Positions 15,138 through 61,665 of a stretch of DNA of 64,000 nucleotides are shown in pieces. Both the position numbers and the translations under genes were made by a program. Location of the stretch: NCBI GenBank assembly GCA_049323655.1, contig JBMONO010000034.1:113653-177652 (forward strand), given 5' to 3'. Every line of letters starts with the position of its first letter. Position 1 is the stretch's first letter. The stretch is from Thermodesulfobacteriota bacterium (GTDB lineage: Bacteria; Desulfobacterota; Desulfobulbia; Desulfobulbales; SURF-16). Under the pieces are notes generated by a model. It ran no database searches and was not told the origin of the DNA. It was given only the letters and a program-made list of their open reading frames with translations.

Positions 15138-15262
15138 GAAATCGTAATAACTGAAAATTAACCACAGAGACCGCAGAGCGCACAGAGATAACTTGTCGTA
15201 ACCAAAGATATTTTCTCTGCGCCCGTAACTCTTTCTGTGGTGAAAAAAGACTTTTTACGGGT
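15138..15262 (+). repeat. Z-type palindromic intergenic repeat, copy 1
   Basis: GAAATCGTAATAACTGAAAATTAACCACAGAGACCGCAGAGCGCACAGAG ... CTCTGCGCCC..TTTCTGTGGTGAAAAAAGACTTTTTACGG. Lies between the gspC-like gene and the secretin. Confidence 0.85.
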
Positions 15263-15281
15263 TTGTCAAAAAAGGTACCTT

Positions 15282-17519
15282 ATGGAAAGAAGCGCAAGCA
15301 CCCTGATCTCGTCGTCCCACCGAGGAGCGCATGCCGTCCCGGCCCTTCTTGTTCTCATCGGTCTTCTGCTGCTGGCCGGTTGCGCCGGCCGCTCCCGGAT
15401 CGACATGCCGGAAATCGACTTAAAGAGCGCCAGCGAGTCCATTGCCCGTGATCCCAGCAGGTCTCCCATGCTGGAAGTTGAGGAAGAACGGGCCAAGCGG
15501 CAGCCGCCGCCCAGGGTTCGTGATATTGACCTAACCCGGACCAAGGGGGGGGGGGACGAGGGTGCAGTCACGGCGAGAAGCTTGCAACGTGACGAGAGTG
15601 CTGAAAAAGAGACAAAGGCAGAGGCGGAAGAGGGGATCATGCTCAATTTCGACAATGCCGACATCTATGAAGTCATCCAGATCATTGCCGCCACCCTGAA
15701 TATCAACTATATCATCGATCCCCAGGTCAAGGGTGTCGTCAATATTCATTCCGGCAGCAAGATTCCCAAGGATCAGCTGCCGGCCGTCTTCAGGAAGATC
15801 CTCCATATCAATGGTCTGGATATCCGCAGCGAAGGCGATTATGAATATATTTACGTCGCCAAGCGGGCCGGGGCGCAGATCGTCAACAGCCCGGACAGCA
15901 TTGCGAAACTCAGCGATTCGCCCCGCTTCATCACTCAGGTCATTTCGCTTTCCCATGTCGCCTCGGCTGAGGCCTTTAAAATCGTGGAACCCTATCTCTC
16001 GGCGCAGGGGTCGGTCTATGATCTGACTGACCAGAACACCCTGCTGGTCAGCGATTTTGAAAGCAAGGTGGTGGATGTTCTGCGCCTGCTTGCCAAAATC
16101 GACGTCTCAGCCCTTGCCTCCCTGCACATCAAACTGGTTCGGGTTGATAACGCTCCGGTTTTCGATTTGCGTGATGAACTGACCGAGATCTTCATTGCTC
16201 TGAAAATCAATCGGAAGGATTATGAAGGCATTTCCGTCGTCCCTCTGGAGCGAATCAACTCGCTGATGCTGATCAGCAATGATCCTGAGCAGCTCGAAAA
16301 CGGCGTGACCTGGATCAGGGAACTCGATGTCGAGCCGTCCCAGGACCGGGACAACATCTATATCTATAATGTCCGGAATTCGGTGGCCTCCGAACTGTCC
16401 GAGCTGATCAACGAACTGCTCACCGAAAAGGAGCCGCAGTCCAGTGAGACTGTGGCGCGGACGAGCAAGGATCCCCTCTCGTCATCTCTCCCTGACCGGG
16501 ATGACCCGGCCGCCGCCAGAGCAAAAGCAACAACACAGCAGAGTGCCCGGAAAAAAACCACTGCCGAAGGCGGGAAGGCGCCGTTGTCAAGCCTGCGGTT
16601 TGTCGGCACGCCGGTGGTTTTTGCCAATGACGACCGGAATATCATCCTCATCCGCGCCCTGCCGGCTGATTACAGCCGCATCGTCAAACTGCTGGAACGG
16701 CTTGACAACCTGCCGCGCCAGGTGCTGGTTGAGGTGCTCATTGCCGAAATCGAGCTGCAGAATGAACTGGAACTGGGGGTCGAATGGTTTGTCTCCAGCC
16801 AGAAATGGTCCCTCGGCACCCAGTTCTCCGCCGTCGGAATGACCGGCGAAAATGCCTTTCCAAGTGGTTTTTCCTATGCCTTCAGTTACGGCGATGTCGA
16901 GGGTTTCCTCCAGGCGCTCGCGACCAAGAGCGATTTCGCCATCCTCTCCTCCCCCCAGGTGCTGGTGCTCAACAACGAAAAGGCAACGGTCAACGTCGGC
17001 AAGCAGGTGCCCATCGTCACCACGGTAACGGAAAACATCACCACTACCAGCCAGGTGGATAAAACCGTCCAGTACCAGGACACCGGCGTCATTCTTGAGG
17101 TCACCCCCCAGATCAACTACAACGGCATTATTCTTCTCGAAGTAAGCCAGACGGTCAGCAAGGCCCAGGAAAACACTACCTCGGACATCAGCTCCCCCGA
17201 GATTTCCAAGCGCGAGTTGACAACCAAGCTGGCGGTCAAAAACGGGCAGACCATACTGATGGGCGGCATGATCGATAAAAATACCTCGACGATCAAAAGC
17301 GGCGTTCCGCTCCTCATGGACATTCCGCTATTGGGCAATATTTTTAAATATCAGAAGGATACCACCCGGAAGACGGAACTGCTTATCATCATCACTCCGT
17401 TTGTAATTGAATCCGAGGATGTGCTTGATCAGTACGTTCGAGCTTTTGAGGAAAGGATGGCCCGGCTGCGCCCCCATCTGCACGAGCCCATTGGCGACAA
17501 CCCACGACAACAATGGTAA
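15282..17519 (+). CDS. gspD: Outer-membrane secretin (GspD/PilQ family), probable lipoprotein
   Basis: Secretin C-domain signature (GVPLLMDIPLLGNIFKY...ELLIIITPFVI) and N-domains. Start moved to ATG 15282 because the ORF-track start 15237 lies inside a repeat element. Lipobox LLLAGC. Confidence 0.9.
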   Translation: MERSASTLISSSHRGAHAVPALLVLIGLLLLAGCAGRSRIDMPEIDLKSASESIARDPSRSPMLEVEEERAKRQPPPRVRDIDLTRTKGGGDEGAVTARSLQRDESAEKETKAEAEEGIMLNFDNADIYEVIQIIAATLNINYIIDPQVKGVVNIHSGSKIPKDQLPAVFRKILHINGLDIRSEGDYEYIYVAKRAGAQIVNSPDSIAKLSDSPRFITQVISLSHVASAEAFKIVEPYLSAQGSVYDLTDQNTLLVSDFESKVVDVLRLLAKIDVSALASLHIKLVRVDNAPVFDLRDELTEIFIALKINRKDYEGISVVPLERINSLMLISNDPEQLENGVTWIRELDVEPSQDRDNIYIYNVRNSVASELSELINELLTEKEPQSSETVARTSKDPLSSSLPDRDDPAAARAKATTQQSARKKTTAEGGKAPLSSLRFVGTPVVFANDDRNIILIRALPADYSRIVKLLERLDNLPRQVLVEVLIAEIELQNELELGVEWFVSSQKWSLGTQFSAVGMTGENAFPSGFSYAFSYGDVEGFLQALATKSDFAILSSPQVLVLNNEKATVNVGKQVPIVTTVTENITTTSQVDKTVQYQDTGVILEVTPQINYNGIILLEVSQTVSKAQENTTSDISSPEISKRELTTKLAVKNGQTILMGGMIDKNTSTIKSGVPLLMDIPLLGNIFKYQKDTTRKTELLIIITPFVIESEDVLDQYVRAFEERMARLRPHLHEPIGDNPRQQW

Positions 17520-17526
17520 AAACGAT

Positions 17527-17859
17527 ATGAGACAGATAGTCATCGATGAACTCAGCCCGGAGGAACGGGCCAATCTTGACAGCTACCTGAAGAGGACGGT
17601 CAAACAGGGAGGAATGGAGGGGATGTTCTGGCTTGCCGTGCCGGATGATCTGCTTGCTTCCGCCCAGCAGGGCCATGAAGAATGCGGCCCGTTTTTTTTC
17701 GGCATTGAGCTGGCGGAGAAAAAACTCATTGTCGAGCTGCTGGTCCGCAGTCAGAGTAATCTCCATTGCTCGTGCATCAGTTACGCCAGCCCGGCCCAGC
17801 GAAATTTTCTCCTTGAATTCCTCGATCGGATGCTGACCGAAGAACGGATCAGGGCCTGA
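17527..17859 (+). CDS. Hypothetical 110-aa protein appended to the secretion cluster
   Basis: ATG 8 nt after the secretin stop. I do not recognise a family. The ORF-track start 17407 overlaps the secretin. Confidence 0.5.
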   Translation: MRQIVIDELSPEERANLDSYLKRTVKQGGMEGMFWLAVPDDLLASAQQGHEECGPFFFGIELAEKKLIVELLVRSQSNLHCSCISYASPAQRNFLLEFLDRMLTEERIRA

Positions 17860-17875
17860 TGGTTTGAACGAACCG

Positions 17876-17909
17876 AAAAAAAACTCCCGTCGGAGAGTTC
17901 CGACGGGAG
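17876..17909 (-). terminator. Rho-independent terminator of the tusA-dsrE-chp operon (hairpin usable from both strands)
   Basis: CTCCCGTCGG / CCGACGGGAG stem (17884-17893 / 17900-17909). The A8 run at 17876-17883 gives a T8 tail on the minus strand. Confidence 0.7.
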
Positions 17910-17954
17910 TCATGGCCCACCCGCAAGGGCGTCACCCTTGCGTGACTTATTTTC

Positions 17955-18128
17955 TCACCACCAGCAGATGGTCTGATCTGCCGCATAAAGCATGTCGACC
18001 AGCTTGTCGTAATCCGGGGACTCGACGTTGAGGTTGAAGGATTCGTTTTCACGTCCTTCGGAGACGATCGCCACCAGTTTTTTGACCTCATCATTGGGCT
18101 CGGAACGGTATACATGAAGGATTTTCAT
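17955..18128 (-). CDS. 57-aa TusB/DsrH-like mini protein (chp2 of the YTD-type cluster); absent from the ORF track
   Basis: ATG 18128 with AGGAGA upstream, TGA at 17955-17957. Translation: MKILHVYRSEPNDEVKKLVAIVSEGRENESFNLNVESPDYDKLVDMLYAADQTICWW. Both ends resemble TusB/DsrH (MLHTLHRSP...LLSEGDE ... DYTDFVRL...W). Confidence 0.6.
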   Translation of the reverse strand: MKILHVYRSEPNDEVKKLVAIVSEGRENESFNLNVESPDYDKLVDMLYAADQTICWW

Positions 18129-18167
18129 AGCGTGCTGTTCTCCTGGTAAAATCTTCAGTGAATCACA

Positions 18168-18488
18168 TCAGCTCTTGTCGCTGCGCATGATGCCGTAGGG
18201 AACGATGACATCCATTTCCCGCAGTTTCTGGCCGAGCTCCTCGAGGGTGATCTTGACCAGGCCGTACTTTTCGACATTGCCGTCGGGAATGCTGTAGATT
18301 TCGCCTTCCATGTCGCGGATCCAGTCGATGTTTTCCTTGTGGTATTCCGTCATCTGCTCTTCTTCGATTTCGTTGTTGATGACGACGCCGTAGGCGTACA
18401 TGTTTTCAACGGCAAGGCCAAGGGCGGATCTGACGCCATCCAGGATATACTCGCGGCTGGGGTACATAAAGCAAACTTTTTTTGACAT
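18168..18488 (-). CDS. DsrE/DsrF-fold protein (chp1 of the YTD-type cluster, DsrF/TusC-like)
   Basis: 106 aa. ALGLAVENMYAYGVVI block typical of the DsrE/F/H fold. No obvious active-site Cys. Lies between the dsrE-like gene and the mini dsrH-like gene. Confidence 0.6.
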   Translation of the reverse strand: MSKKVCFMYPSREYILDGVRSALGLAVENMYAYGVVINNEIEEEQMTEYHKENIDWIRDMEGEIYSIPDGNVEKYGLVKITLEELGQKLREMDVIVPYGIMRSDKS

Positions 18489-18498
18489 CGTCGCCTCC

Positions 18499-18816
18499 TT
18501 ATAAGGTCAGGTAGCAGTCATAGTCTTCGACAATGGCGCCATGCTGGGCCTGGGTCGCCATCTTTTCCTGGGTCAGACCGGCCGGAATATCGGCGACATC
18601 ATAGCCCATTTTCTTGTAACTGTCGGCGCAGATGGAGACATCGACGTTGTCCATGTCACAAAGCTGCTTGAACGTCGGACACTTGGTCAGATGGGTCGAC
18701 ATCCAGGTAAAGAACACCTTAACCTTCGCCCCCTTGGCAACACCGGCCTTGGTGATGCCGAGGATGTGTCGCATGTTCTGGGGAGACGTTACAAAAATCC
18801 CGATACTTTTTGCCAT
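18499..18816 (-). CDS. DsrE-like sulfur-relay protein
   Basis: 105 aa. DsrE/TusD-like fold with a conserved Cys in VDVSICADSYKKMGY. Adjacent to tusA. Confidence 0.75.
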   Translation of the reverse strand: MAKSIGIFVTSPQNMRHILGITKAGVAKGAKVKVFFTWMSTHLTKCPTFKQLCDMDNVDVSICADSYKKMGYDVADIPAGLTQEKMATQAQHGAIVEDYDCYLTL

Positions 18817-18906
18817 TTGCTTCCTCCATGTAGTTCAAATGATCGAACGACGCGACCAGCGCGGGTCGTGCCGCTCCGTCCGCCAAACAGGTGAGGGGTC
18901 AGTCAC

Positions 18907-19164
18907 CTATTTTTTCTTGATGAAGAAACGGAAGTAGCCGGATTCTTCTTTCTCGCCCACGAACTCATGACCGGCCCTGGTGCACCAGCCCGGCAGGTCG
19001 TTGCGGGAACCGGGATCGGTGCCGAGGATTTCGAGGATCTGGCCGGAGCTGATTTTGTCGATTTCCTTTTTGGTCCGCAGCAGGGGCATGGGGCAGCTCA
19101 ATCCTTTCGCGTCAAGGGTACGATCTGCTTTGATATCGGCCGGTGCTTGTTTAAAGTCGCTCAT
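18907..19164 (-). CDS. tusA: TusA-family sulfurtransferase
   Basis: 85 aa. Canonical LDAKGLSCPMPLLRTKK motif (CPxP). Confidence 0.9.
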   Translation of the reverse strand: MSDFKQAPADIKADRTLDAKGLSCPMPLLRTKKEIDKISSGQILEILGTDPGSRNDLPGWCTRAGHEFVGEKEESGYFRFFIKKK

Positions 19165-19549
19165 TGATTCCTCCTTAACAACGGGTTTTCATTAACTAGC
19201 ATTTGCGCTTCCACAAAGCCTGGCGAAAGATCACTCTGTGCACCAGGCAGCCATGATTGACAAACATTTCAGCGAAAATAACGACAAAAAATCACTTAAC
19301 AAGAAAGAAATGTTCTGTCAAGGCGAAAAATGAACGGTAATTCAGGCCTGGCCGAAACCTGTTGTTTGTACCTATTTCCTGAACGAAATCCCATTGATAA
19401 ACTTACTTGACAAATTTTTTTGCCGAGAGTAAAGGAGTTTGAATGACAAGTTTGGCACTTTATTAATGAGTTCCTTTGAGGAGAGGTTCAGGCGGGAGTG
19501 GCACCCCGTCTCGAGAGGAAACATTAATTCAATAATGGGAGAGAAGAGT

Positions 19550-20794: not shown

Positions 20795-20831
20795 CCAAGG
20801 TCAGCCGGCTGTGCCGGCGGGGCTTGCGAAA

Positions 20832-20871
20832 AGTCGCATTTTCGGTATTGCCGGAAATGCGACTTTTTTTT
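20832..20871 (+). terminator. Rho-independent terminator after yedE
   Basis: AGTCGCATTTTCGG / CCGGAAATGCGACT stem followed by T8. Confidence 0.75.
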
Positions 20872-20960
20872 GGCCTTGACAGGGGCGCGCTGATGCGGGC
20901 ACAGTGTGGAGAACAGCAGTATTGCAGGTAATGACCATTCTGCTGAATACCTGACGATAA

Positions 20961-25902: not shown

Positions 25903-26038
25903 GAGTTTAAAGGTGCGGCGGCGTCGTGAAAGCGGAGGCGGAAAAATGGTGCGTTTCGCATTCCGCGATCCCGCCGCAAAGGCGGCGACCGGACTTTTTT
26001 GCGACGCCATCTAAAATGAGAACCGATTCATTTTCCGG

Positions 26039-28359: not shown

Positions 28360-28489
28360 AATGATGATGGTTTCGCAAAAACGGAAAATTAACCACAGAG
28401 ATCACTGCACGCCAAGAGGTAACTGTTTGTAATTTATAAAGTTTTTTTTATGCTCTCTCTGTTTTCTGTGGTAAAAAAGACCTTTTACG
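28360..28489 (+). repeat. Z-type repeat, copy 2 (more diverged core)
   Basis: AAATGATGATGGTTTCGCAAAAACGGAAAATTAACCACAGAG ... TTTTCTGTGGTAAAAAAGACCTTTTACG. Starts right after the stop of the FmdB-like gene. Confidence 0.8.
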
Positions 28490-28490
28490 A

Positions 28491-28530
28491 TTGTCGGAAT
28501 CGTAAAAAGCCGCCATTCCGACAAAAGATG
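28491..28530 (+). repeat. Y-type short hairpin repeat
   Basis: TTGTCGGAATCGTAAAAAGCCGCCATTCCGACAAAAGATG, with a perfect 10-bp stem TTGTCGGAAT / ATTCCGACAA. Directly follows Z copy 2. Confidence 0.7.
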
Positions 28531-34175: not shown

Positions 34176-34386
34176 ACGGCTGTCGACATTTTTGTCGAGG
34201 GGAGCGGGAAATGTCGAAGTGGCGGGCGGGGTGGCCGGCGAGATCCACTGAAACACCATCACTCCGGCCTCTCCCTGGTTGTGGCGTGAATTTTGCTGTA
34301 ATATGCCGGTAAAGATCATAGGAAGCGCGAAGACAGGAGTCAGCAGGCAGAATTTGGCGAGGATTGGGGATAGTTGCGGAAAAAAA

Positions 34387-34497
34387 TGAAAAATTAATCA
34401 CAGAGACCACAGAGCTTGCTCTGGTAACTTGCTGTAATTCAAGATGTTTTCTCTGTGTTCTCAGTGCGCTCCGTGGTAAAAAAAGACTTTTTACGGG
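34387..34497 (+). repeat. Z-type repeat, copy 3
   Basis: TGAAAAATTAATCACAGAGACCACAGAGC ... GTGCGCTCCGTGGTAAAAAAAGACTTTTTACGGG. Lies in the 400-nt gap after mnmG. Confidence 0.85.
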
Positions 34498-34583
34498 GGC
34501 GTCATTGATTTGATGCCGTTTGCTTCTGGCTCTTGACTGCTCTCAGGAAACAAACTCATATTGCCACAACCCGGAAACGTGAA

Positions 34584-36569: not shown

Positions 36570-36650
36570 AAAAAGTGAAGGTCTCGCAAAAACCCGAAAA
36601 ACATGGCAGGCGGGAAAGCGAAAACAATGTTTTACAAACACGGCCCGTCG
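36570..36650 (+). repeat. X-type intergenic repeat, copy 2
   Basis: GAAAAAGTGAAGGTCTCGCAAAAACCCGAAAAACATGGCAGGCGGGAAAGCGAAAACAATGTTTTACAAACACGGCCCGTCG. Lies between the kinase and the sigma-54 regulator. Confidence 0.75.
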
Positions 36651-36681
36651 GAATCGCCGTTTTTTCCTATTTCGGCAAAAT

Positions 36682-38022
36682 GTGATGCCCATGAAGATAC
36701 TCCTGGTTGACGATGAGAAAATGCAGCGGGAAACCCTGCAGGGTTTTCTGGAAAAAAAGGGATACCAGACCTTTGCCGCGGAAAACGGGGCCGATGCCCT
36801 GCGACTGTTCGCCCTGCACCCGGTGCAACTGGTGCTGCTCGATCATCGCATGCCGGACATGAACGGCGACGAGGTGCTCGCCCGGATGAAGGAGATCAAT
36901 CCCCTGGTGCATGCCATCATGATCACCGCATACGGGGCGGTGGACACCGCGGTGCGGGTCATGCGGCTCGGGGCCGACGATTTTTTGGAAAAGCCGGTCG
37001 ATCTGCTCGAACTGCTGGCCAAGATCGAACGGATAGAACAGCAGACCGCCATGGAGGAGGATGTCGCGGCGGTGACCGAGACCATCGACCACCAGGATCT
37101 GCCCCTCAAAGTGATCGGCGACAGCCCGGCGATGCGCAATCTGCTTTCCACCGTCCAGCGCGTCTCCCAGACCCCGTGGACTGTGCTTATCCGCGGCGAA
37201 ACCGGCACCGGCAAGGAGTTGATCGCCCGGCTTATCCATCTGCTCAGCTCGCGCGGGGAGGGGCCGTTCATCGAAGTCAACTGTGCGGCGGTGCCGGAAA
37301 ATCTCTTTGAATCCGAGTTGTTCGGCCACGAAAAGGGATCGTTCACCGGCGCCACCGGTCGCCGCAAGGGCCGTTTTGAGCTGGCCCAGTCCGGGATCCT
37401 CTTTCTCGACGAGGTCGGCGAGCTGCCGCTCACCATGCAGGCCAAGCTGCTGCGCGCCCTCCAGGAAAAAAAGATCAGTCGGGTGGGCAGTGAAACCGAC
37501 ATCGAAGTGGATGTGCGGGTGCTGGCCGCCACCAACCGCAACCTCAAGGAGTTGGCCGGTGAGGGCAAGTTCCGCGAGGATCTCTACTACCGGCTTAATG
37601 TCCTGGAGATCGAGGTCCCGCCCCTGCGCCAGCGCAGGGAGGACATTCCGCTCCTCGTTGATTTTTTCCTGGCGCGGTACGCGTCCCGGCCGGTGCGCTT
37701 TGACCCGGAGGCAATGGCCACCCTGGTCAAATATTCTTTCCCCGGCAACGTCCGGGAGCTGGAGCACGTCATCCAGCGCACCGTCACCATGCTGCGCGGC
37801 TCGGTGGTGCGGGTGGCCGATCTGCCGGCGGAAATGCGGCTCGGCCCCTCAGGAGGTGAATCCGGCAATTTGACCGATCGGCTGGAGGCGGTGGAACGGG
37901 AGATGATCAGCGCTGCCCTGGAGGAGCATGACTGGGTGCAGACCCGGGCTGCAGAGGCGCTCGGCATCAGTGAACGGGTACTGCGTTATAAGATGGGCAA
38001 ATACGGCATCCGGAAAAAATGA
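36682..38022 (+). CDS. Sigma-54-dependent response regulator (NtrC family)
   Basis: REC domain (MKILLVDDE), AAA+ domain (GETGTGKE, ESELFGHEKGSFTGA) and a C-terminal Fis-type HTH. The true start may be ATG 36685 or 36691. Confidence 0.93.
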   Translation: MMPMKILLVDDEKMQRETLQGFLEKKGYQTFAAENGADALRLFALHPVQLVLLDHRMPDMNGDEVLARMKEINPLVHAIMITAYGAVDTAVRVMRLGADDFLEKPVDLLELLAKIERIEQQTAMEEDVAAVTETIDHQDLPLKVIGDSPAMRNLLSTVQRVSQTPWTVLIRGETGTGKELIARLIHLLSSRGEGPFIEVNCAAVPENLFESELFGHEKGSFTGATGRRKGRFELAQSGILFLDEVGELPLTMQAKLLRALQEKKISRVGSETDIEVDVRVLAATNRNLKELAGEGKFREDLYYRLNVLEIEVPPLRQRREDIPLLVDFFLARYASRPVRFDPEAMATLVKYSFPGNVRELEHVIQRTVTMLRGSVVRVADLPAEMRLGPSGGESGNLTDRLEAVEREMISAALEEHDWVQTRAAEALGISERVLRYKMGKYGIRKK

Positions 38023-38029
38023 CAAACCC

Positions 38030-38142
38030 GCAAAAAGTTTTTTTACCACAGAGCGCACAGAGGATGCAGAGAAAACATCTTTTATTACAATTGGTTACCT
38101 ATGCGCGCTCTGCGGTCTCTGTGGTTGATTTTCACTTTTTAC
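38030..38142 (-). repeat. Z-type repeat, copy 4 (inverted orientation)
   Basis: The reverse complement reads GTAAAAAGTGAAAATCAACCACAGAGACCGCAGAGCGCGC ... CTCTGTGCGCTCTGTGGTAAAAAAACTTTTTGC. Lies between convergent genes. Confidence 0.85.
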
Positions 38143-38204
38143 AAGACCATTAAAAATGACGCGTGGCACGGGCCAAACAGGGCGGCGGCGTTACCGGATT
38201 GCGG

Positions 38205-44229: not shown

Positions 44230-45147
44230 ATGAAGGTGAAATTCTGGGGCGTTCGCGGCTCCATCCCCTGTCCCGGCCCGCTCACCATGAAATACGGCGG
44301 CAACACGCCCTGTCTGGAGCTGCGTTTCCCGGAGATAAACCGTCTCATCATCATCGACGCCGGCTCCGGTATCCGTGAGCTCGGTAACTTCATGATGAAA
44401 CACGATCTGCCCAAGGGCCCGATCAGGACGGAAATCTTTCTTTCCCATACCCACTGGGATCATATCATGGGCTTTCCCTTTTTCACGCCGATCTACATTC
44501 CCGGGACCCGGCTCACCGTTTACGGTCCGGTATCGTATGAGCAGGATACCCTGGAAAAGATCGTCGGCGGCCAGCTCACCTATCGCTATTTCCCGGTGCG
44601 GGGGGAGGAACTGGGGGCCGCCATCCGCTATATTGACCTCAAGGAGGGGCGTTACAATCTCGGCGACGGCATCAGGCTGACCACCAAGTACCTCAACCAT
44701 CCCATCCTCTGCCTGGGTTACCGTTTCGAGTACCAGGGCAAGGTCTTCTGCACCGCTTACGACACCGAACCCTTCCGTAATCTCTTTGTTACCGATCCGG
44801 CTGATCCTTCCTATGATGCGGCCATGGCCGAGGAGGGCGAGCTGGCGGCCCGGGAACAGAACGAGGTGGTGGAAAATTTTGTCGCCGGCGCCGATCTGCT
44901 CGTCTACGACTGCCAGTACACCGCGGCAGAGTATGAGGCGGGCAAGAAGGGATGGGGCCATTCCTTTTTCGAGTATGTCTGCCCAATGGCGGCCCGCAAC
45001 CGGGTCAAACGGCTGGCCCTGTTTCACCACGAACCGATGCGCACCGACGAGCAGCTGGACGGCCTGGCGGTGATTCATTGCGCAAAAGGCGCCTACGGCG
45101 ACACCGAGATTTTTTTCGCCAGAGAGGGCGAGGAGATCATGCTTTGA
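44230..45147 (+). CDS. MBL-fold metallo-hydrolase
   Basis: MKVKFWGVRGS N-terminus and the HxHxDH motif (SHTHWDH). An alternative start at 44203 overlaps the HDOD stop. Confidence 0.75.
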   Translation: MKVKFWGVRGSIPCPGPLTMKYGGNTPCLELRFPEINRLIIIDAGSGIRELGNFMMKHDLPKGPIRTEIFLSHTHWDHIMGFPFFTPIYIPGTRLTVYGPVSYEQDTLEKIVGGQLTYRYFPVRGEELGAAIRYIDLKEGRYNLGDGIRLTTKYLNHPILCLGYRFEYQGKVFCTAYDTEPFRNLFVTDPADPSYDAAMAEEGELAAREQNEVVENFVAGADLLVYDCQYTAAEYEAGKKGWGHSFFEYVCPMAARNRVKRLALFHHEPMRTDEQLDGLAVIHCAKGAYGDTEIFFAREGEEIML

Positions 45148-45149
45148 TA

Positions 45150-45262
45150 CGGTTCGTAAGAACTGAGAATCAACTACGCCCACCGAGCACCCGGAGATAG
45201 CACTGACAGTCATTCAACATGTTTTCGCTGTGTCCTCCGTGGTTAAAAAGATTTTTTGCGAC
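45150..45262 (+). repeat. Z-type repeat, copy 5 (diverged)
   Basis: CGGTTCGTAAGAACTGAGAATCAACTACGCCCACCGAGCACCCGGAGATAGCACTGACAGTCATTCAACATGTTTTCGCTGTGTCCTCCGTGGTTAAAAAGATTTTTTGCG. Aligns best with copy 6. Confidence 0.7.
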
Positions 45263-45291
45263 GCCATCTTCTTTGCAATAGCGAAAACAGC

Positions 45292-54571: not shown

Positions 54572-54629
54572 TACACGGTTGTTGAATGGAAACCAGAGGA
54601 AATGACTCTAAGCAGACAAGGAGGAGAAC

Positions 54630-54940: not shown

Positions 54941-54976
54941 AGAAGGCGTCGGGTAACCGACGCCTTCTCCTTTTCC
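54941..54976 (+). terminator. Rho-independent terminator downstream of rubredoxin
   Basis: 12-bp stem AGAAGGCGTCGG / CCGACGCCTTCT, GTAA loop, then CCTTTTCC. Confidence 0.7.
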
Positions 54977-55202
54977 GCTTCTCATTCCACCAGGACTCAC
55001 GGTCCATCCCGGCTTTCCCCTTGACAGACCGGCCGTCACATTATAAGCAGAGGGATGATGTGCACAGGGCCGCCGATCGTCAGGAGACCGTCAGGCCCTG
55101 CCGCATCGGCAGGCAACGACCTGCCTTTTCCCCTGTCGGGCCTCGCGCGCTCGGCAGTCATCTCACCGTGCCCCGGCGGCACGAATCGGACCGGAACGGC
55201 TT

Positions 55203-57533
55203 ATGGAATACAAGAGCATCCTCGACCTGATCGGCAACACCCGAATTGTGCCCATCAACCGCCTCAACCCGCACAAGAGCGTTACGATCTACGTCAAACT
55301 CGAATCCGGTAATCCGGGCGGCTCGGTCAAGGACCGCATCGCCCTGTCCATGATCGAAACCGCCGAAGAGCGTGGAGAACTGACCCCTGACAAGATCGTT
55401 CTGGAGGCGACCAGCGGCAACACCGGCATCGGACTCGCCATGGTCTGCGCGGTTAAGGGTTACCGGTGCCAGCTGGTGATGCCGGAATCGGCCAGTATTG
55501 AGCGGCGAAAGATCATGGAGGCCTATGGGGCCGAAATTCTCCTGACCCCCGGCAAACGAGGTACCGACGGCGCCATCGAGCGTGCCTATGCCATGGCCCG
55601 TGAGCATCCGGACCAGTATTTTCTCACCGATCAGTTCAACAACGAGGCCAACTGGATGGCCCACGTCAAGACCACCGGGCCGGAGATCTGGGAGCAGACC
55701 AATGGCCGGGTGACCGATGTCGTCGCCACCCTGGGCACCACCGGCACGGTGATGGGGATCTGCCGCTACTTTGCCGACAACCATCCCGAGGTGCGGATTA
55801 CTGCGGTCGAGCCCTTCCTCGGCCATAAGATCCAGGGCCTGAAAAATATGAAAGAGTCGTATAAGCCTGGTATCTTTGATAAAACAAAACCATTCCAGAT
55901 CATCAACGTCCCGGACGAGGAGGCCTTCCGGTACGCCCGCCTGCTGGCTCGCAAGGAGGGAATATTTGCCGGCATGAGTTCCGGCGCGGCCATCTGCGCG
56001 GCGCTGGCGGTGGCGGATCAATTGGCGGAGGGTATGATTGTTGTTATCCTGCCGGACAGCGGCGACAAATATCTCAGCACTGAACTTTTCACCGCCAAAA
56101 AGGAAAAAAAGGCAAAGACCACCGAAGGGCTCCGTTTTTTCAATACCCTCAGCCGCAAAAAGGAAATCTTCCAGCCCCAGTCCGGCAATCGGGTCACCTT
56201 CTACGCCTGCGGCCCGACCGCCCATGAACTGGCCAACCTGGCCCACTGTCGCCGTTTTGTTGTCGCCGATCTCATTCATCGGCTTTTGCGGCAGAAAGGC
56301 TATGATGTCCAGTACTACATGAACTTCACCGATCTCGACGACAACACCATCAGCGGCGCGGCCCGGGCCGGTCGGCCGTTGGCCGAGTTCACCGGATTCT
56401 ATATCGAGGAATTCATGAAGGACATGGAGGCCCTCCGCCTGCTGCCGGCCACCGGCTATCCGCGTGCCTCGGAGCATGTCGAGGAGATGATCACCATCGC
56501 CCACGAGCTGGTCCACAAGGGCTATGCCTATGAACAGCACGGCTCGGTGTATTTCGATATCAGCAAGTTCAGGAAGTACGGCAAGCTGTCCCGGGTGCCG
56601 CTCGACAAGATCAAGGTCGGCATGACCGTTGATCTCGACGACTACGAAAAGAACAATCCGCTGGACTTCACCCTGATGAAGCGCTCTACCCTGGCGGAGC
56701 TGAAAAGCGGCGTCTTTTATCAGACCGACCGGGGCAACATGCGACCCGGCTGGCATATCGAGTGCGCGGCCATGACCCTCCACTATCTCGGCGAGACCAT
56801 GGATATTCACACCAGCGGCCGGGATCTGCTCTTTCCCCATCATGAAAACGAAAACGCCATTGCCGAGAGCCTGACCGGCAAGCCGCTGGCCAGATTCTGG
56901 ATCCACAGCGAGTTACTGCTGGTGGAGGGCCGCAAGATGAGCGCGGACAACAACAACGTCATCACCCTGCGCCAGCTTGTCGAGCAGGGCTATACCCCCC
57001 GGGAGATTCGTTTCTTTCTCATCCGCAACCACTATCGCAAGCCGATCGATTTTTCGGTGAAGAAGCTCGACAGCGCGCGGGTGAGTCTCAAACGCCTCGA
57101 CGAATTCACCCGCAAGCTCCAGTGCCTGCCGCCGGATATGCCTCATCCCAAGGTGGCGGCCTATGTCTCGGATATGGAGGAGTCCTTTCAGGCCGCCCTT
57201 GAAGACGACATGAACGTCTCCCGGGCGATCGGCGCCATCTTCGACTTTATCAAGAAAGTCAATCCCGTCATCAGCGCAGGTCAGCTCGACCGGGACCAGA
57301 AGGAGTATATCCGCGAATCCCTGGAAAAGATCAACGCCATCCTCAATGTCCTGCGCCTGGAGGAGTGTCCGCTCGCCCCGGAGATCGACAGGCTGATCCG
57401 GGAGCGGGAGCAGGCCCGCAAGGAAAAGGACTGGGCCAGGGCCGATGATGTCCGCAACCGGCTTGCCGAGCAGGGCATCACGGTGATCGACACCGCCAAG
57501 GGACCGGTCTGGAAGGAAAACGACCGGGAGTAA
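55203..57533 (+). CDS. Fusion protein: cysteine synthase (CysK/CysM-type PLP enzyme) + full-length CysRS-like domain with degenerate class I motifs
   Basis: 776 aa in one frame. aa 1-297 are CysK-like (PLP Lys in GGSVKDR, TSGNTGIGLA, GTTGT). A Lys-rich linker TAKKEKKAKTTEG follows. From aa ~310 the sequence is CysRS-like (LRFFNTLSRKKE, GWHIECAAM, DIHTSGRDLLFPHHENE, anticodon-binding tail), but HIGH reads NLAH and KMSKS reads KMSAD. Confidence 0.85.
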   Translation: MEYKSILDLIGNTRIVPINRLNPHKSVTIYVKLESGNPGGSVKDRIALSMIETAEERGELTPDKIVLEATSGNTGIGLAMVCAVKGYRCQLVMPESASIERRKIMEAYGAEILLTPGKRGTDGAIERAYAMAREHPDQYFLTDQFNNEANWMAHVKTTGPEIWEQTNGRVTDVVATLGTTGTVMGICRYFADNHPEVRITAVEPFLGHKIQGLKNMKESYKPGIFDKTKPFQIINVPDEEAFRYARLLARKEGIFAGMSSGAAICAALAVADQLAEGMIVVILPDSGDKYLSTELFTAKKEKKAKTTEGLRFFNTLSRKKEIFQPQSGNRVTFYACGPTAHELANLAHCRRFVVADLIHRLLRQKGYDVQYYMNFTDLDDNTISGAARAGRPLAEFTGFYIEEFMKDMEALRLLPATGYPRASEHVEEMITIAHELVHKGYAYEQHGSVYFDISKFRKYGKLSRVPLDKIKVGMTVDLDDYEKNNPLDFTLMKRSTLAELKSGVFYQTDRGNMRPGWHIECAAMTLHYLGETMDIHTSGRDLLFPHHENENAIAESLTGKPLARFWIHSELLLVEGRKMSADNNNVITLRQLVEQGYTPREIRFFLIRNHYRKPIDFSVKKLDSARVSLKRLDEFTRKLQCLPPDMPHPKVAAYVSDMEESFQAALEDDMNVSRAIGAIFDFIKKVNPVISAGQLDRDQKEYIRESLEKINAILNVLRLEECPLAPEIDRLIREREQARKEKDWARADDVRNRLAEQGITVIDTAKGPVWKENDRE

Positions 57534-57544
57534 GGGCCGGCCGA

Positions 57545-58813
57545 TTAGATGGCGCGGACCACGGGCAGATCCGACCAGCGGGTGGTGTAGGCCGGTGATT
57601 TCATCTGCTGCCGGTTGGCCCACGGCCGATTGACGGCGGCCACCGCATGGCGGATGGTGTGGCGGCCCCAGCGCTCGTTGATCGTGTCGAGGGCTGCCAT
57701 CAGCGGCCCGCTTTTGCGGTCCGGGGCTGTGAAGAGGCTGGGCTGGCGATGCTCTTCTCCCACCAGGCCGAAGAGGACGACGCCGGCCTTCTGGTAATGC
57801 AGGCCCGGCCGGTAAAGACGACCAAGGACGGCGAGGGCGTGGCGGATCAGCACCGTGCTGTTTGCCGTCGGAGTCGTCAGGGTGGCAACCTGCTGGCCAT
57901 AATAGTACGGCTCCGTCGGCCGGAAACGGTTGGTACAGAGATAGACCTGGAGGCTGCCGGCCAGGGCGCGACGACCGCGCAGCTTGACCGCGGCCTGTTC
58001 CACATAGGTGGCCAGCGCCTCCCGCAGATCGGCCAGCGTCTCCACCGGACAGCCGAAGGATTTCGAGCTGGTGATGGAGCGGTGGGCGAGCGGGCATTCC
58101 TCCGGCGCCAGGCAGGAAATGCCGCGCAGCTCCATGGCGGTCCGCAGGCCGGTGACGGTCAGATGACGCCGCAGCCACTCATCATCAGCATTTTTCAGAT
58201 CAAGGGCGGTCAGGATTGCCTGTCGCCGGAGCCGCTCGCCGTGGCGCGGGCCGATGCCCCAGACATCGGTGACCGGGCAGCGGCGCAACACGTCATCGTT
58301 CACCTCCTCCCCAAGCGTCTGGACCCCGCCGTACTCCTCCTGCTTTTTGGCGACCCGGTTGGCGATCTTGGCCAAAGTCCGGGTCGGGCCGATGCCGATG
58401 GAGACGGGAATGCCGGTGGCGTGCATGACCAGTTGCCTGATCTCCCGGCCGTACTGCCCGGGGTTGACACCGGGCGGCGGCATGAAACGCAGAAAGGCCT
58501 CGTCGATGGAATAGACCTCCACCTCCGGTTCGAGCTGGTGCAGCACCGCCATCACCCGGCGGGAGATGTCGCCGTACAAGGCGTAATTGGAGGAGAAAAC
58601 CGCGGTGTCGTGCCGGGCGAGCAGGCCCTTGCATTTGAAGTAGGGAGCGCCCATGACGATGCCCAGCTCCTTGGCTTCATTGGAGCGGGCGATGACGCAG
58701 CCGTCGTTGTTGGACAGCACCACCACCGGTCGGCCCTGCAGACGCGGCTGGAAGAGTCGTTCGCAGGAGACATAGAAGTTGTTGCAATCGACCAGGGCGA
58801 ACAGCTTTTGCAT
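57545..58813 (-). CDS. umuC: Y-family translesion DNA polymerase V catalytic subunit
   Basis: 422 aa. N-terminus FALVDCNNFYVSCERLFQP and Y-family motifs. Confidence 0.9.
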   Translation of the reverse strand: MQKLFALVDCNNFYVSCERLFQPRLQGRPVVVLSNNDGCVIARSNEAKELGIVMGAPYFKCKGLLARHDTAVFSSNYALYGDISRRVMAVLHQLEPEVEVYSIDEAFLRFMPPPGVNPGQYGREIRQLVMHATGIPVSIGIGPTRTLAKIANRVAKKQEEYGGVQTLGEEVNDDVLRRCPVTDVWGIGPRHGERLRRQAILTALDLKNADDEWLRRHLTVTGLRTAMELRGISCLAPEECPLAHRSITSSKSFGCPVETLADLREALATYVEQAAVKLRGRRALAGSLQVYLCTNRFRPTEPYYYGQQVATLTTPTANSTVLIRHALAVLGRLYRPGLHYQKAGVVLFGLVGEEHRQPSLFTAPDRKSGPLMAALDTINERWGRHTIRHAVAAVNRPWANRQQMKSPAYTTRWSDLPVVRAI

Positions 58814-58821
58814 GGTGTCAC

Positions 58822-59268
58822 CTACAGCTGGTGGATGGCGCAGGTCGCCACCCCCCAGATTTCAAGCTCCATGCCGGTCCGGATCTCGGTGGCGGGATAG
58901 TCGGGATTCTCCGCCTGCAGCCTGCAGCTGTCGCCGTTTTTCACCAGGCGTTTTACCGTCAGTTCCCCGTCCAGCACGGCTATGACGATGCGGCCGCTGG
59001 TCGGGGCAAGCGAGCGATCGACAATGAGAATGTCGTCGTGATTGATGCCGGCGCCGACCATTGAATCGCCAGCCACCCGGACGAAAAAGGTGGCAGCCGG
59101 ATTGGCGATCAGATACTCGTTGAGGTCAAGTTGCCGGTCGATGTAATCGTCGGCCGGTGAGGGGAAACCGGCGGAAACGCCGCTGGCAAAGAGAGGGCGG
59201 GGTAGATGGCTGCCGGGCTCGCAGCGGGCGATGCCGGCGATGGAGGAGGAAAGGCGGAGAGCGGACAT
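58822..59268 (-). CDS. umuD: UmuD / LexA-like S24 peptidase
   Basis: 148 aa. Ser-Lys dyad context (VAGDSM ... LTVKRL). Directly upstream of umuC. Confidence 0.88.
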   Translation of the reverse strand: MSALRLSSSIAGIARCEPGSHLPRPLFASGVSAGFPSPADDYIDRQLDLNEYLIANPAATFFVRVAGDSMVGAGINHDDILIVDRSLAPTSGRIVIAVLDGELTVKRLVKNGDSCRLQAENPDYPATEIRTGMELEIWGVATCAIHQL

Positions 59269-59412
59269 GGCTGGTGCTTCCTTTGCGGTGGATTGTTTAC
59301 GGGAGCAATCGTTTTATGCTATCCTGATGCCAAGAATACCAGAGGGGCCGGCTCCGGTCAACCGGGGGCAGGTTGGCGCCGGCCGTTCCATCGATGCCAC
59401 GAGGAGGATGCG

Positions 59413-60834
59413 ATGCGCACCCTGATGACCGCCACCCTTTTGCTGCTGCTGGCCGCCACGCCGGCCACGGCGGCAGACGAAATCGTCTCCACCGCCCGGG
59501 ACCAGCTGGGGGTTGCCGTTACCATATACAATGACGATCTCGCCCTGATCAAGGACCGGCGCACCGTCACCCTGCCGGAGGGGCGCGCAGTTCTCGCTTT
59601 TCGCGAGGTGAGCGGCCGGATCAGGCCGGAAACCGCCCTGCTGTCCGGCGAGGGCATGGCGGTGCTGGAGCAGAATTTCGAGTTCGATCTGCTCACCCCG
59701 GAGGCGCTGCTCGCCAAATACGTGGGCCGCGAGGTGACCCTGATCCGCACCCATCCCACCACCGGTGCGGAGAGCCGCGAACAGGCGCAGGTTTTGAGCG
59801 CCGCGGCCGGGGTGGTGCTCCGGCTCGGCGATCACATCGAAACCGGGGTGCCGGGCCGCCTCGTCTTTGCCGATGTGCCGGACAACCTGCGCGACCGGCC
59901 CACCCTGACCATGCTGACCGACAGCAGCACAGCCGGACCCCGCCAGCTGGAGTTGAGCTATCTCACCGGCGGGTTAGGCTGGCATGCCGACTATGTAGCC
60001 GAACTCGCTGCAGATGATGCCTCTCTTGATCTCAACGGCTGGGTCACCCTTACCAACGAAAGCGGGACAACCTATCATCAGGCTGATCTGCAACTGGTGG
60101 CCGGCGACGTTCATCGTCTGCCGCCGGAGGAGGGGCAGGGGCAGTACATGGAAAAGGCCATGCTGCGGGCCGCGCCGGTGGCGCCCGCCATGGTCGAGGA
60201 ATCGATGTTCACCTACCATCTCTACCGACTGGAACGGCCGACCACCATCCGCGACCGGCAGAGCAAACAGATCGCCCTGCTCGGCGCCGGTGGGGTTGCC
60301 TGTAAGAAGGAGCTGCTTCTGCAGGGCCGCGATGCCGCTTACAGTAGTCCGGCCGGGGAAACCGTCAGCAAGGTGAAGGTCGGCGTCTTTGTCGAGACGA
60401 CCAACAGCAAGAAGAACCGGCTCGGCCTGCCTCTGCCAAGGGGGGTGGTGCGGGTCTATAAAAAGGATGCCCGCGGCGGCCTGCAGTTTGTCGGCGAGGA
60501 TCGCATCGATCATACCCCGGAAAACGAGACGATTCGTCTCCGGCTCGGCGATTCCTTTGACGTGACGGCGTGGAAGAAACAGACGGAATTTAAAAAGGTT
60601 GCCGGCTTTTCCCTCTACAATTACGTCTATGAAAGCAGCCATGCGATCGAGCTGAAAAACGGCTCGGCCGAAGAGGTGACCGTCACGGTCAACGAACCGG
60701 TGCCGGGCGACTGGGAGATGCTGACCGAATCCCTGCCCCATGAAAAGGCGGCCAGCAATACGGCGGTATGGCGGGTGCCGGTGCCGTCGCACGGGGCAAC
60801 GACCCTGACCTACTCGGTGCGGGTGAAATTCTGA
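59413..60834 (+). CDS. Secreted DUF4139-like (MuiA-family-like) protein
   Basis: Start at ATG 59413 behind GAGGAGG. Signal peptide MRTLMTATLLLLLAATPATA. N-terminal VAVTIYNDDLALIKDRR pattern, as I recall it for DUF4139. Confidence 0.65.
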   Translation: MRTLMTATLLLLLAATPATAADEIVSTARDQLGVAVTIYNDDLALIKDRRTVTLPEGRAVLAFREVSGRIRPETALLSGEGMAVLEQNFEFDLLTPEALLAKYVGREVTLIRTHPTTGAESREQAQVLSAAAGVVLRLGDHIETGVPGRLVFADVPDNLRDRPTLTMLTDSSTAGPRQLELSYLTGGLGWHADYVAELAADDASLDLNGWVTLTNESGTTYHQADLQLVAGDVHRLPPEEGQGQYMEKAMLRAAPVAPAMVEESMFTYHLYRLERPTTIRDRQSKQIALLGAGGVACKKELLLQGRDAAYSSPAGETVSKVKVGVFVETTNSKKNRLGLPLPRGVVRVYKKDARGGLQFVGEDRIDHTPENETIRLRLGDSFDVTAWKKQTEFKKVAGFSLYNYVYESSHAIELKNGSAEEVTVTVNEPVPGDWEMLTESLPHEKAASNTAVWRVPVPSHGATTLTYSVRVKF

Positions 60835-61166
60835 CGTTTTTTCTTGACGGGTTTTCTGCGCATGCCGTCCAGCAGGTGCATGAAGGCCAGGAAGGGGTGA
60901 GAAAAGATCATGCCCGGTCCGATCGCGCGCATGACCTGCCTGATCCGCTCCCGCATCGCCGGCTTGTAACAGTGCACCGCGCAGTTGCCGCAGGTGGTTT
61001 TGCCCTCTTGAAACGGGCAGTGGCGCAGCCGCTTGCGGGCATAGGCGAGCAGCTCCCGGCAGTCCTGGCAGAGATCGTTACCCCCGCCGTGATGACGGCG
61101 GCAGTAGATCGCAATCATGGCGGCAATGGTGGTTTCCTCGCGCTGCATGCGTCTGAAGCTCAGCAT
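60810..61166 (-). CDS. Nitrous-oxide-stimulated-promoter family (YgbA_NO) Cys-rich protein
   Basis: 118 aa. Pattern YCRRHH...LCQDCRELLAYARKRLRHCPF...KTTCGNCAVHCY. Confidence 0.65.
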   Translation of the reverse strand: MLSFRRMQREETTIAAMIAIYCRRHHGGGNDLCQDCRELLAYARKRLRHCPFQEGKTTCGNCAVHCYKPAMRERIRQVMRAIGPGMIFSHPFLAFMHLLDGMRRKPVKKKRQNFTRTE

Positions 61167-61260
61167 GGTCTCAAGAAATACCAGAGGGATAGGGCGCCGT
61201 CAAGGGGGGAGGAATTGGGTTGCAAATTGTCGTGCCCCGTGCTAAGAAAGATGCACTCGT

Positions 61261-61360
61261 GAAAGTCCTTTTTTGCCGCGGAGAGCACAGGGAAAACATT
61301 TTGAATGACAGTCAGTTATCTCCGTGTGCTCCGTGGTTTTTTGTGGTTGATTTTCAGTTT
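61261..61360 (-). repeat. Z-type repeat, copy 6 (inverted), ends 2 nt before tRNA-Arg
   Basis: The reverse complement reads AAACTGAAAATCAACCACAAAAAACCACGGAGCACACGGAGATAACTGACTGTCATTCAAAATGTTTTCCCTGTGCTCTCCGCGGCAAAAAAGGACTTTC. Confidence 0.75.
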
Positions 61361-61362
61361 GC

Positions 61363-61439
61363 GCGCCCGTAGCTCAGCTGGATAGAGCACCGGCCTTCTA
61401 AGCCGTAGGTCGCAGGTTCGAATCCTGCCGGGCGCGCCA
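61363..61439 (+). tRNA. tRNA-Arg (anticodon TCT), CCA encoded
   Basis: The cloverleaf can be read directly: acceptor GCGCCCG/CGGGCGC, D arm GCTC-AGCTGGATA-GAGC, anticodon arm CCGGC-CTTCTAA-GCCGT, T arm GCAGG-TTCGAAT-CCTGC, discriminator G, then CCA. Confidence 0.93.
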
Positions 61440-61480
61440 GGAAAACCCGGGCTTTCCCGGAACTGAATGCCCTGCCGGGC

Positions 61481-61530
61481 AAAACCCCTCTGTCATCGGC
61501 TCCCTGCCGGCAGAGGGGTTTTTGTTTTGT
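61481..61530 (+). terminator. Probable terminator after tRNA-Arg
   Basis: CCCCTCTG (61485-61492) / CAGAGGGG (61511-61518) stem with a large loop, followed by TTTTTGTTTTG. Confidence 0.55.
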
Positions 61531-61548
61531 CTCAATAAATGATGAAAT

Positions 61549-61665
61549 CGCAAAAGGTCTTTTTTTACCACGGAGAGCACTGATGGCACAGAGAAAATAT
61601 CTTTAATTACAATTAGTTGATTCTGTGTGCTCTGCGGTCTTTATGGTTGATTTTCAGTTTTTACG
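61549..61665 (-). repeat. Z-type repeat, copy 7 (inverted), about 110 nt after tRNA-Arg
   Basis: The reverse complement reads CGTAAAAACTGAAAATCAACCATAAAGACCGCAGAGCACACAGAATC ... CAGTGCTCTCCGTGGTAAAAAAAGACCTTTTGCG. Confidence 0.85.

Follow-up and report, generated by a model that had tools for sequence, protein, structure and literature searches.

Class A copies in the window

Among the genes of the 64,000-nucleotide stretch analysed here (assembly GCA_049323655.1, contig JBMONO010000034.1, positions 113,653 to 177,652; hereafter the window), derived from a Desulfobulbia bacterium of the SURF-16 lineage, seven copies (c1–c7) of a palindromic repeat, termed class A, are distributed between positions 15134 and 61674. 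The flanking genes are ordinary and include gspD, mnmG, recD2 and genes coding for a methyltransferase, histidine kinases, a sigma-54 response regulator and a Wza-like exporter. The seven repeats are interpreted here, with a probability of about 0.75, as copies of a two-layered, non-autonomous transposable element of the miniature inverted-repeat type (MITE) of Desulfobulbia, ~135 bp in length.

The original prediction, made from the sequence alone, described seven alignable elements, four in one orientation and three in the other. An nhmmer profile built from the seven repeat stretches, and searched against the 64-kb window, recovered exactly seven full matches (E 5.9e-31 to 1.8e-39), four on the forward (+) and three on the reverse (-) strand, while the weaker matches represent only the reverse strands of the same seven places, as is expected for palindromes. 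A short core pattern matched ten times in the window, against 2.1 ± 1.3 times in shuffled sequence. The copies in the window are 61–78 % identical to each other, range between 115 and 135 bp, within the ~50–800 bp usual for MITEs, and are without coding capacity, with the sole open reading frame (ORF) signal being the spurious start at 15237 that had been flagged before, a GTG within c1; the real start of gspD is the ATG at 15282. The three conserved blocks that had been described are visible in the alignment of the seven copies, and all of these fold into long, imperfect hairpins on either strand, with z-scores of approximately -3 to -5 in 4/7 copies and weak values in c2, c5 and c7.

The first copy, c1 (15134..15268, +; E 9.7e-39), is of full length, with the ends TGATGAAATCG...GGGTTTGTCA and the flanking 4-mers AAGA / AAAA. 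As had been proposed, it lies inside the secretion operon, between a gene coding for a 255-amino acid protein and the secretin gene gspD, in tandem behind a sibling element of class B. At its right end, c2 (28365..28495, +; E 3.8e-35) merges into, or overlaps with, a class C mini-hairpin, and the same copy is also found in the Logan contigs L001-L005. Downstream of mnmG, c3 (34368..34504, +; E 1.4e-36) has a degenerate left terminus (GGATAGTTGCGG). The copy c4 (38020..38152, -; E 1.8e-39) is located between convergent genes, is flanked by perfect 4-mers (TTTT/TTTT) and folds into the best hairpin among the seven copies (-41.1 kcal/mol, z -4.9). The most diverged copy, c5 (45145..45269, +; E 5.4e-31), is situated between a gene for a metallo-β-lactamase (MBL)-fold protein and recD2. 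At the far end of the window, c6 (61248..61362, -; E 5.9e-31) has lost its left terminus and abuts the 5' end of tRNA-Arg(TCT), and c7 (61540..61674, -; E 3.6e-39), a full-length copy with near-perfect termini (TGACGAAATCGTAAAAA / TGATGAAATCGCAAAAG), is found downstream of the tRNA terminator and upstream of the Wza-like gene. The tRNA-Arg(TCT) gene (61363-61439) is thus bracketed by two copies in the same orientation, retains its own terminator at 61501-61518, and has its 5' end exactly at the point where the terminus of c6 was lost.

The copies had been considered strictly intergenic, and all seven are indeed located between genes. This requires qualification, however, as the sigma-54 response-regulator gene uses the terminal TGA of c4 (38020-38022) as its stop codon, the MBL-fold gene ahead of c5 stops at the terminal TGA of that copy (45145-45147), and the ORF upstream of c6 (60768-61262) runs ~15 nt into this copy (61248-61262) and ends inside it. 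Host genes thus use element-borne stops; the termini of the element carry TGA and TAA codons.

Termini, target-site duplications and orthologous loci

One genome per species was searched with a restrictive, exact pattern, and the counts derived from this search are among the matches listed. The retrieved loci and contigs that were compared with the window are numbered L001 to L130. Pattern matches were obtained in the Desulfobulbia/Thermodesulfobacteriota metagenome-assembled genomes (MAGs) JBMONN01, CAZUZJ01, JACQYM01, JALNXE01, JAUWDC01, JAYEPA01 and JAHIVT01, to which the window's own genome does not belong, with at least thirty-three distinct class A copies in one related MAG, and alignment of the window with these MAGs at the DNA level is restricted to the repeats. 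Sixty-three copies, taken from the window and from five or more Desulfobulbia MAGs, were aligned, and their conserved stretch extends from TGATG to GTCA. This delimits an element of ~135 nt, 5'-TGATGRNYTCGTAAAAA ... TTTTTACGRRTYYRTCA-3', in place of the 110–125 nt given originally, where the ends had been set ~5–10 nt too far in. The element is bounded by a terminal inverted repeat of ~17 nt with TG...CA tips. Both ends have the form TGA-N6-CGTAAAAA, the middle 5–6 nt of which vary between copies and between the two ends, and the termini are complementary at 17/17 or 16/17 positions in c7, L032 and L130. The outermost ends, initially seen as the paired base of the hairpin, are transposon termini and are common to other elements in the window.

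These termini are flanked by direct, rather than inverted, duplications. Across forty-three independent copies, the 4 nt to the left and right of the element are identical at 114/172 positions, compared to 57 ± 6.4 in permutations (maximum of 82 in 10,000), and perfect flanking 4-mers occur in 17/43 copies, where 1.2 would be expected. The per-position profile indicates a duplicated stretch of the form A-NNNN-T, with examples including AAAGG, ATGTT, ACACT, AAGAG, AAACC and the TTTT of c4.

Empty and partly deleted sites were found at orthologous loci. In L103, whose gspD is 73 % identical, the element is absent and gspD follows 34 nt after the upstream gene, via CTCCTCAAAAAAGGTCACCCATGG. The class B and class A elements of the window are inserted at exactly this A-run, with the junctions AAAGA / AAAGA / AAAAA, and AAAAAGGTACC..ATG is kept ahead of gspD after both insertions. 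Similarly, L113 (recD2 71 % identical) has a 31-nt spacer without an element, while in L112 (93 % identical) a deletion of 66 nt has taken away the right arm of c5 together with the terminus, so that no more than its left half is retained. A selfish element would be expected to insert, to persist and to lose its hairpin without constraint, as is seen here. For the c2 locus, metagenome relatives were also considered as an empty site and set aside, being too distant (55–60 % identity) and differently arranged, and orthologous copies in two close MAGs gave no resolution as to purifying selection (elements 96–99 %, flanks 93–98 % identical). Between two close MAGs, an identity of 96–99 % extends as far as an orthologous class A copy and across it (L020 at ~1960 and L080 at ~3780), all similarity being lost ~60 nt past this copy, which may represent a rearrangement breakpoint at the repeat.

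The c1 element is present in a relative with an 89 % identical GspD, whose contig begins inside the right end of the element, and three short-read assemblies of the source organism likewise begin inside the right end of c1. The first 40 nt of L102, L104, L105 and L106, four short-read assemblies independent of one another, lie in this right end, and the repeat is a systematic assembly breakpoint for this organism. The large genome-wide family that had been postulated from seven copies in 64 kb is supported only indirectly, by these breaks and by the at least thirty-three copies of the related MAG.

The same termini surround several unrelated interiors. A class B element (15026..15128, +; repeat family D4) is delimited by TGATGGTCTTGCAAAA...CGATTTCGACA, has an interior (CATGGCAGGCAG...) unrelated to that of class A, and stands in tandem with c1, an AAAGA spacer recurring at each junction. 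A second class B element (36576..36677, +; D4, 75 % identical to 15002-15088) is located just upstream of the response-regulator gene. Class B elements, of ~103 nt, share the interior CATGGCAGGCGGGAAAG... / ..CCGCAAACCATGGCAGGCGGGAAAGTGAAAACAAC.. and close with a class C-type hairpin, and they form a family in the related MAGs, with members at L009:795, L062:3072(-), L074:4755(-) and 4647(-), and L083:1069. A sigma-54 promoter within class B was rejected by eye, the GG/GC spacing being unfit for TGGCAC-N5-TTGC, as was a link with sigma-54 regulators via a response-regulator paralogue in L085, where the site is not of class B. The class C mini-hairpins consist of the two termini alone. The pair in the window (14151..14180, TGTCGGAATCGTAAGAAGCCACGATTCCGA; and 28492..28523, which abuts c2) forms repeat family D13 and is 91 % identical. 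Elements of this class (TGTCGGAATCGTAAAAAGCCACGATTCCGACA) are ~30 nt long, similar in size to repetitive extragenic palindromic (REP) sequences, and flank class A copies in L040, L066, L070 and L079. A half-site scan further identified a candidate class D element (25920..26012), which has related termini (GGCGTCGTGAAAG...CTTTTTTGCGACGCCATCT) and a different, G+C-rich interior; its terminus variant AGATGGCGTCGCAAAAA is also the right end of c5. Outside the window, contig 3300031571_000223 of IMG/VR (L130), classed as viral, carries at 4982-5209 an element of 228 nt whose ends are perfect 17-nt copies of these termini; its interior is unrelated, and it is flanked by a perfect duplication of AGCA. 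Tandem arrangements are frequent, in the order B-A (at gspD and in L079), B-B-A (L074), A-B (L055, L076) and A-C (L040 and at c2). One terminus set thus carries at least four different interiors, and a single enzyme acting in trans is therefore implied.

Candidates for an autonomous partner were examined and set aside. Wherever two termini lay 400–5000 nt apart in any of the loci, they belonged to adjacent MITEs only; termini standing alone were those of class B copies or matched coding sequence by chance, and a scan of viral contigs returned mostly chance matches and one new non-autonomous element, that of L130.

The outer layer of the element comprises the ~17-bp termini, which would be recognised by a transposase acting in trans. 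Such an enzyme would make cuts staggered by 4 bp in an A/T-rich A|NNNN|T target, with the 4 bp being duplicated on insertion. The TG...CA tips and 4-bp duplication, which we take to resemble those of IS3/IS481-type DDE elements, suggest that the enzyme may be of this kind. Each junction (TCA-NNNN-TGA) would again constitute a target, allowing elements to pile up beside or inside one another, and the clustering observed can be ascribed to this re-creation of the preferred target. When the inner module is removed from class A, the remaining CGTAAAAAC...GACTTTTTACG closes into a class C-like hairpin, and the best reading of class A is that the module was acquired by a minimal element consisting of ends only. 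The inner layer, a polar hairpin of ~95 bp, would thus have been captured by an end-only element and since spread as cargo. Inserted copies would decay neutrally and persist only between genes or at the extreme 3' ends of genes, where the TGA and TAA codons of the terminus stop translation at once. The copies may have an effect on host transcripts.

The inner hairpin module beyond Desulfobulbia

The inner module comprises AAAAT(T/C)AA, CCAC[AG]GA[GT] and two more CAC[AG]GA[GT] units at 9–10-nt spacing, a loop and, in its second half, three inverted units followed by GTGG-T(D)AAAAA. Its CCACAGAG hairpin core recurs across phyla and is not private to the source genome. Outside Desulfobulbia, 28/36 pattern matches (among the matches listed) share the module architecture without the Desulfobulbia termini, the other eight (L019, L022, L028, L031, L039, L053, L069 and L077) being chance matches; as the pattern imposed only the flanks and not the 9-mer arrays, this cross-phylum sample is selected by flank pattern. 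The module loci are L006, L007, L011, L013, L016, L017, L021, L024, L030, L033, L036, L037, L041, L042, L044, L046, L048, L052, L057-L060, L064, L067, L071, L075, L082 and L107-L111. The hosts, both isolates and MAGs, include three Pedobacter species, Bacteroidales, Chitinophagales, Ferruginibacter, Verrucomicrobiota and several Chloroflexota, as well as Pyrinomonadaceae, Ignavibacteria, Nitrospirota, Treponema, Abditibacterium and Desulfococcus. BLAST comparison against plasmid-labelled records adds Bacteroides finegoldii, B. ovatus and Gemmatirosa (14–21 arm matches per megaplasmid). The module thus occurs in at least ten other phyla, including Bacteroidota, Acidobacteriota, Gemmatimonadota, Verrucomicrobiota, Chloroflexota and Nitrospirota. 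None of 5,426 E. coli genomes matched the core; two gut phage-like contigs did.

The repeated unit varies by lineage (CACAGAG, CACAGAT, CACGGAT or CACGGAG), with the opposite arm following. Two pairs at outer-stem positions covary across phyla (AU 17 / GC 7 and GC 13 / UA 7) in an alignment which mixes lineage-specific subfamilies. Conservation covers the heptamers but not the 2-nt spacers, which also lack complementarity. In 20/25 cross-phylum loci the upstream gene has the A-rich strand as its sense strand (binomial p ~0.004, with crude longest-ORF gene calls), and many of the cross-phylum copies begin at, or within a few nucleotides of, a stop codon. In the same cross-phylum set the opposite strand, which ends the hairpin with UUAAUUUU, folds better (-33.1 versus -30.3 kcal/mol, p 5e-4) and contains 58 G-U pairs compared to 30.

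The module is multi-copy and sometimes tandem (L011, L058 and L064). In plasmid 1 of Gemmatirosa kalamazoonensis (L108, 370-520), the loop of a larger CCGCAGAG-type hairpin contains a hairpin of the CCACAGAG type, one of two sister elements having inserted into the other. The Bacteroides copies are without the polarity, and those of B. finegoldii have extended arms, which form a symmetric inverted repeat of 34 nt (TTATTTCACCAC...) around variable interiors, one of which contains a canonical terminator. In the same species (L107, 3137-3277), a second, unrelated and perfect palindrome of ~140 nt (GGGTCCAGGGTGAGGGGTGGTGAGGGTAGATTTATAAC...) shares its intergenic region with the CCACAGAG hairpin, at a distance of 40 nt. 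An IS1380/piggyBac-like origin of the core (TTAA-CC... ends, 4-bp A/T-rich targets) was considered and found unsupported; the A-rich flanks in Pedobacter and Desulfobulbia belong to the element and not the target, and no transposase is present beside the lone arms in the Bacteroides or Gemmatirosa records.

Competing explanations and known repeat families

The mobile-element reading draws on what was shown for the ends of the element and their duplicated flanks, the empty orthologous loci, the decay of copies, the termini shared with sibling elements, and the lack of both orientation bias and covariation. The original prediction had left the choice between a MITE-like element and a structured-RNA family, and it is the former that is borne out, by the terminal inverted repeats, the 4-nt target-site duplications, the two empty orthologous sites, the half-deleted orthologous copy and the siblings with the same termini. 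A structured non-coding or cis-regulatory RNA family is highly improbable, despite the hairpin energies of 3–5 standard deviations below those of shuffles in 4/7 copies and a conserved, unpaired apical block (GGTAAC..TGTAAT..AAAGATG). As was anticipated, the repeat is not a named Rfam family: at the gathering threshold the window returns only tRNA-Arg, and eighteen cross-phylum loci of the inner module return no match. An E-value scan around c1 gave only the noise typical of generic long hairpins, while the B. finegoldii copy matched only hairpin models of microRNA precursors, below threshold. For tests of strand-specific function in Desulfobulbia, flanking genes were called by a codon-usage score trained on long ORFs, crude longest-ORF calls having been dropped for miscalling known genes of the window. 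Of the fifty-two copies with gene calls, 38 lie between co-directional genes, 7 between convergent and 7 between divergent ones, and within the co-directional regions the element runs with transcription in 17 and against it in 21, showing no orientation preference. The top and bottom strands fold equally well (-28.1 versus -27.8 kcal/mol, p 0.56). While 84 % of cells in the consensus hairpin pair, compensatory change is no higher than in shuffles (covariation score 0.118 versus a shuffle mean of 0.120, with 344/500 shuffles at or above the observed value), and RNAalifold with fifty-six copies kept only CCAC:GTGG, four invariant pairs. The pairing is inherited from a palindromic founder and not maintained, and copies decay, some being partly deleted. 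No sigma-70 promoters or terminators were found above shuffle level in and around the copies, and consensus scans for a G+C-rich hairpin with a U-tract, sense downstream of genes, gave trivial sub-hairpins only. The presence of inverted termini and duplications also sets the family apart from the IS200/IS605-derived palindrome-associated elements (PATE), which have a subterminal hairpin at either end but neither of these features and insert 3' of a fixed tetra- or pentanucleotide.

It is likewise very unlikely that the repeats are REP sequences or bacterial interspersed mosaic elements (BIMEs), that is, host-maintained extragenic palindromes with roles in mRNA stability or nucleoid structure, spread by a domesticated REP-associated tyrosine transposase (RAYT) acting on single-stranded hairpins. 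The mosaic build, in which ~30-nt class C mini-hairpins are combined with different linkers (A, B and D), the tandem clusters, the strictly extragenic location and the proximity of many copies to stop codons would be in keeping with such an origin. However, a 4-nt duplication is clear here and REPs leave none, the class C mini-hairpin is without the conserved GTAG-type head of the 20–40-nt REP palindromes, and divergent promoter regions hold copies as often as expected (7/52). Tips of the TG...CA type are characteristic of DDE enzymes. A search of the window and the loci, which was not exhaustive, showed no RAYT gene.

Several observations weigh against the MITE reading. The duplications in the window are mostly imperfect, with only that of c4 being perfect and those of c1 and c5 (3/4) and c7 (2/4) partial, which would fit the old age of copies with 61–78 % mutual identity. 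The relatives with empty sites are only 71–73 % identical in the flanking protein and their junctions are not alignable base for base. No autonomous insertion sequence with these termini was found across the window and ~0.7 Mb of related loci, where no pair of termini was seen to enclose a stretch of transposase size, and the enzyme is thus hypothetical. Copies are equally close to one consensus between genomes (0.74) and within them (0.69–0.80), and conservation is uneven by column, with GAAAATYAACCAC, TGTAAT and GTGGTGAAAAAA almost invariant, which could reflect selection on the sequence and not a conserved master copy. A lineage-specific MITE also leaves the presence of the module in many phyla unexplained. 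The inner module might instead be the functional part, namely a mobile, one-directional terminator, insulator or transcript-end module, or an array of sites bound by a conserved protein, selected in many phyla, with the Desulfobulbia termini as one vehicle, and this we consider unlikely. It would account for an architecture that recurs in isolates and MAGs although the arrays were not imposed by the pattern, for the arms that change in step, for the conservation of units and not of spacers, and for the sense orientation of the A-rich strand, the better folding and more numerous G-U pairs of the UUAAUUUU strand and the nearby stop codons. In its terminator version, 3' ends are predicted just after GUGGUUAAUUUU, on the bottom strand only. 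Within Desulfobulbia, however, orientation bias, strand asymmetry and covariation are lacking, and one orthologous copy lost half of the hairpin without replacement. The cross-phylum orientation bias derives from crude longest-ORF calls and is equally predicted by the purging of operon-terminating insertions, while in-step change of inverted motif copies is also expected for transposase binding sites. The Bacteroides copies, with symmetric 34-nt inverted ends and variable interiors, are like ordinary MITEs, the nested Gemmatirosa copy points to mobility, and the sample was selected by flank pattern. A filter, by which operon-terminating insertions are purged and mismatches weakening the sense hairpin are tolerated, is more economical than a selected terminator or insulator. 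Only tentatively, and with considerable doubt, can the module be viewed as an ancient, horizontally spread and polar functional unit in at least ten phyla, with its units approximately one helical turn apart, and not merely as MITE ends. It would then be either a mobile, one-directional terminator/insulator blocking antisense/convergent transcription but passed by operon transcripts, or a six-site array for a conserved DNA-binding protein, and the Desulfobulbia element would, if this were true, be a transposon with a captured functional module of host type.

Taken as mobile elements, the repeats constitute a new family of MITEs in Desulfobulbia or, to be precise, a superfamily whose defining feature is its termini. 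No description of the class A family or its core was found in the literature searched, which included MITE reviews and surveys. The Correia (NEMIS/CREE) elements of Neisseria and the ERIC/IRU elements of the enterobacteria are co-transcribed with neighbouring genes as long hairpins, and we know of no cognate transposase that is firmly established for either. The Correia termini are TATAG.GGATTAACAAAAATCAGGAC, compared to TGATG..CGTAAAAA in class A, and the duplication is TA rather than 4 bp and A/T-rich, with the host clade also differing. Class A is further distinguished from Correia and ERIC by being composite, with an inner module found in other phyla. Otherwise, both are like class A, being non-coding elements of 100–150 bp with inverted ends, short target duplications and many intergenic copies (PMC10969869, PMC3184786). 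Chunjie, a MITE found in Geobacter uraniireducens, similarly resides in a formerly 'deltaproteobacterial' metal/sulfur cycler, inserts in operons but leaves them intact, and is present in numerous complete and partial copies that vary in size, as is observed here (PMC10969869). It measures 178–235 bp and is reported only from Geobacter, and as it was compared by description only, no relation is claimed (PMC10969869). Reports of a 'multicopy nucleotide sequence' in Geobacter/Pelobacter concern other genera. The BIME/REP mosaics of E. coli and the BOX/RUP/SPRITE elements of Streptococcus pneumoniae resemble this family in combining a short palindromic unit with alternative linkers and in lying close to stop codons, and SPRITE provides a precedent for a mobile, terminator-like hairpin. 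Elements in these groups cluster and insert into or beside each other (PMC10969869). REP/BIME, being RAYT-dependent and without a target duplication, differ from the present family with its duplications and TG...CA tips, and show no sequence similarity to it. Unrelated interiors within the same terminal repeats are also seen in the Tn3-derived inverted-repeat miniature elements (TIMEs) and in MITE families that share a transposase, with Tn3 differing in its 5-bp duplication and in ends starting with GGGG.

A non-coding mobile element duplicating 4 bases is an ordinary kind of bacterial junk DNA. The family explains the breaks of short-read assemblies at these points, the false ORF starts (15237) and the genes ending in an element-borne TGA, and provides dense markers of lineage and rearrangement. 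It also adds a well-delimited MITE superfamily to the Desulfobulbia, an environmentally important and mostly uncultured group for which none was found described. Prokaryotic MITEs are overwhelmingly genus-specific in large surveys (PMC11602168), and the occurrence of the same flanks and three-unit arms from Bacteroidota to Thermodesulfobacteriota would therefore, if it holds, be unexpected. An analogous intergenic palindrome of ~190 nt, built of CCACGAAAT-type 9-mers, is found at the methyltransferase locus of a metagenome relative (L089, ~530-720), and starts with TGATAGTCCG, resembling the left terminus of class A.

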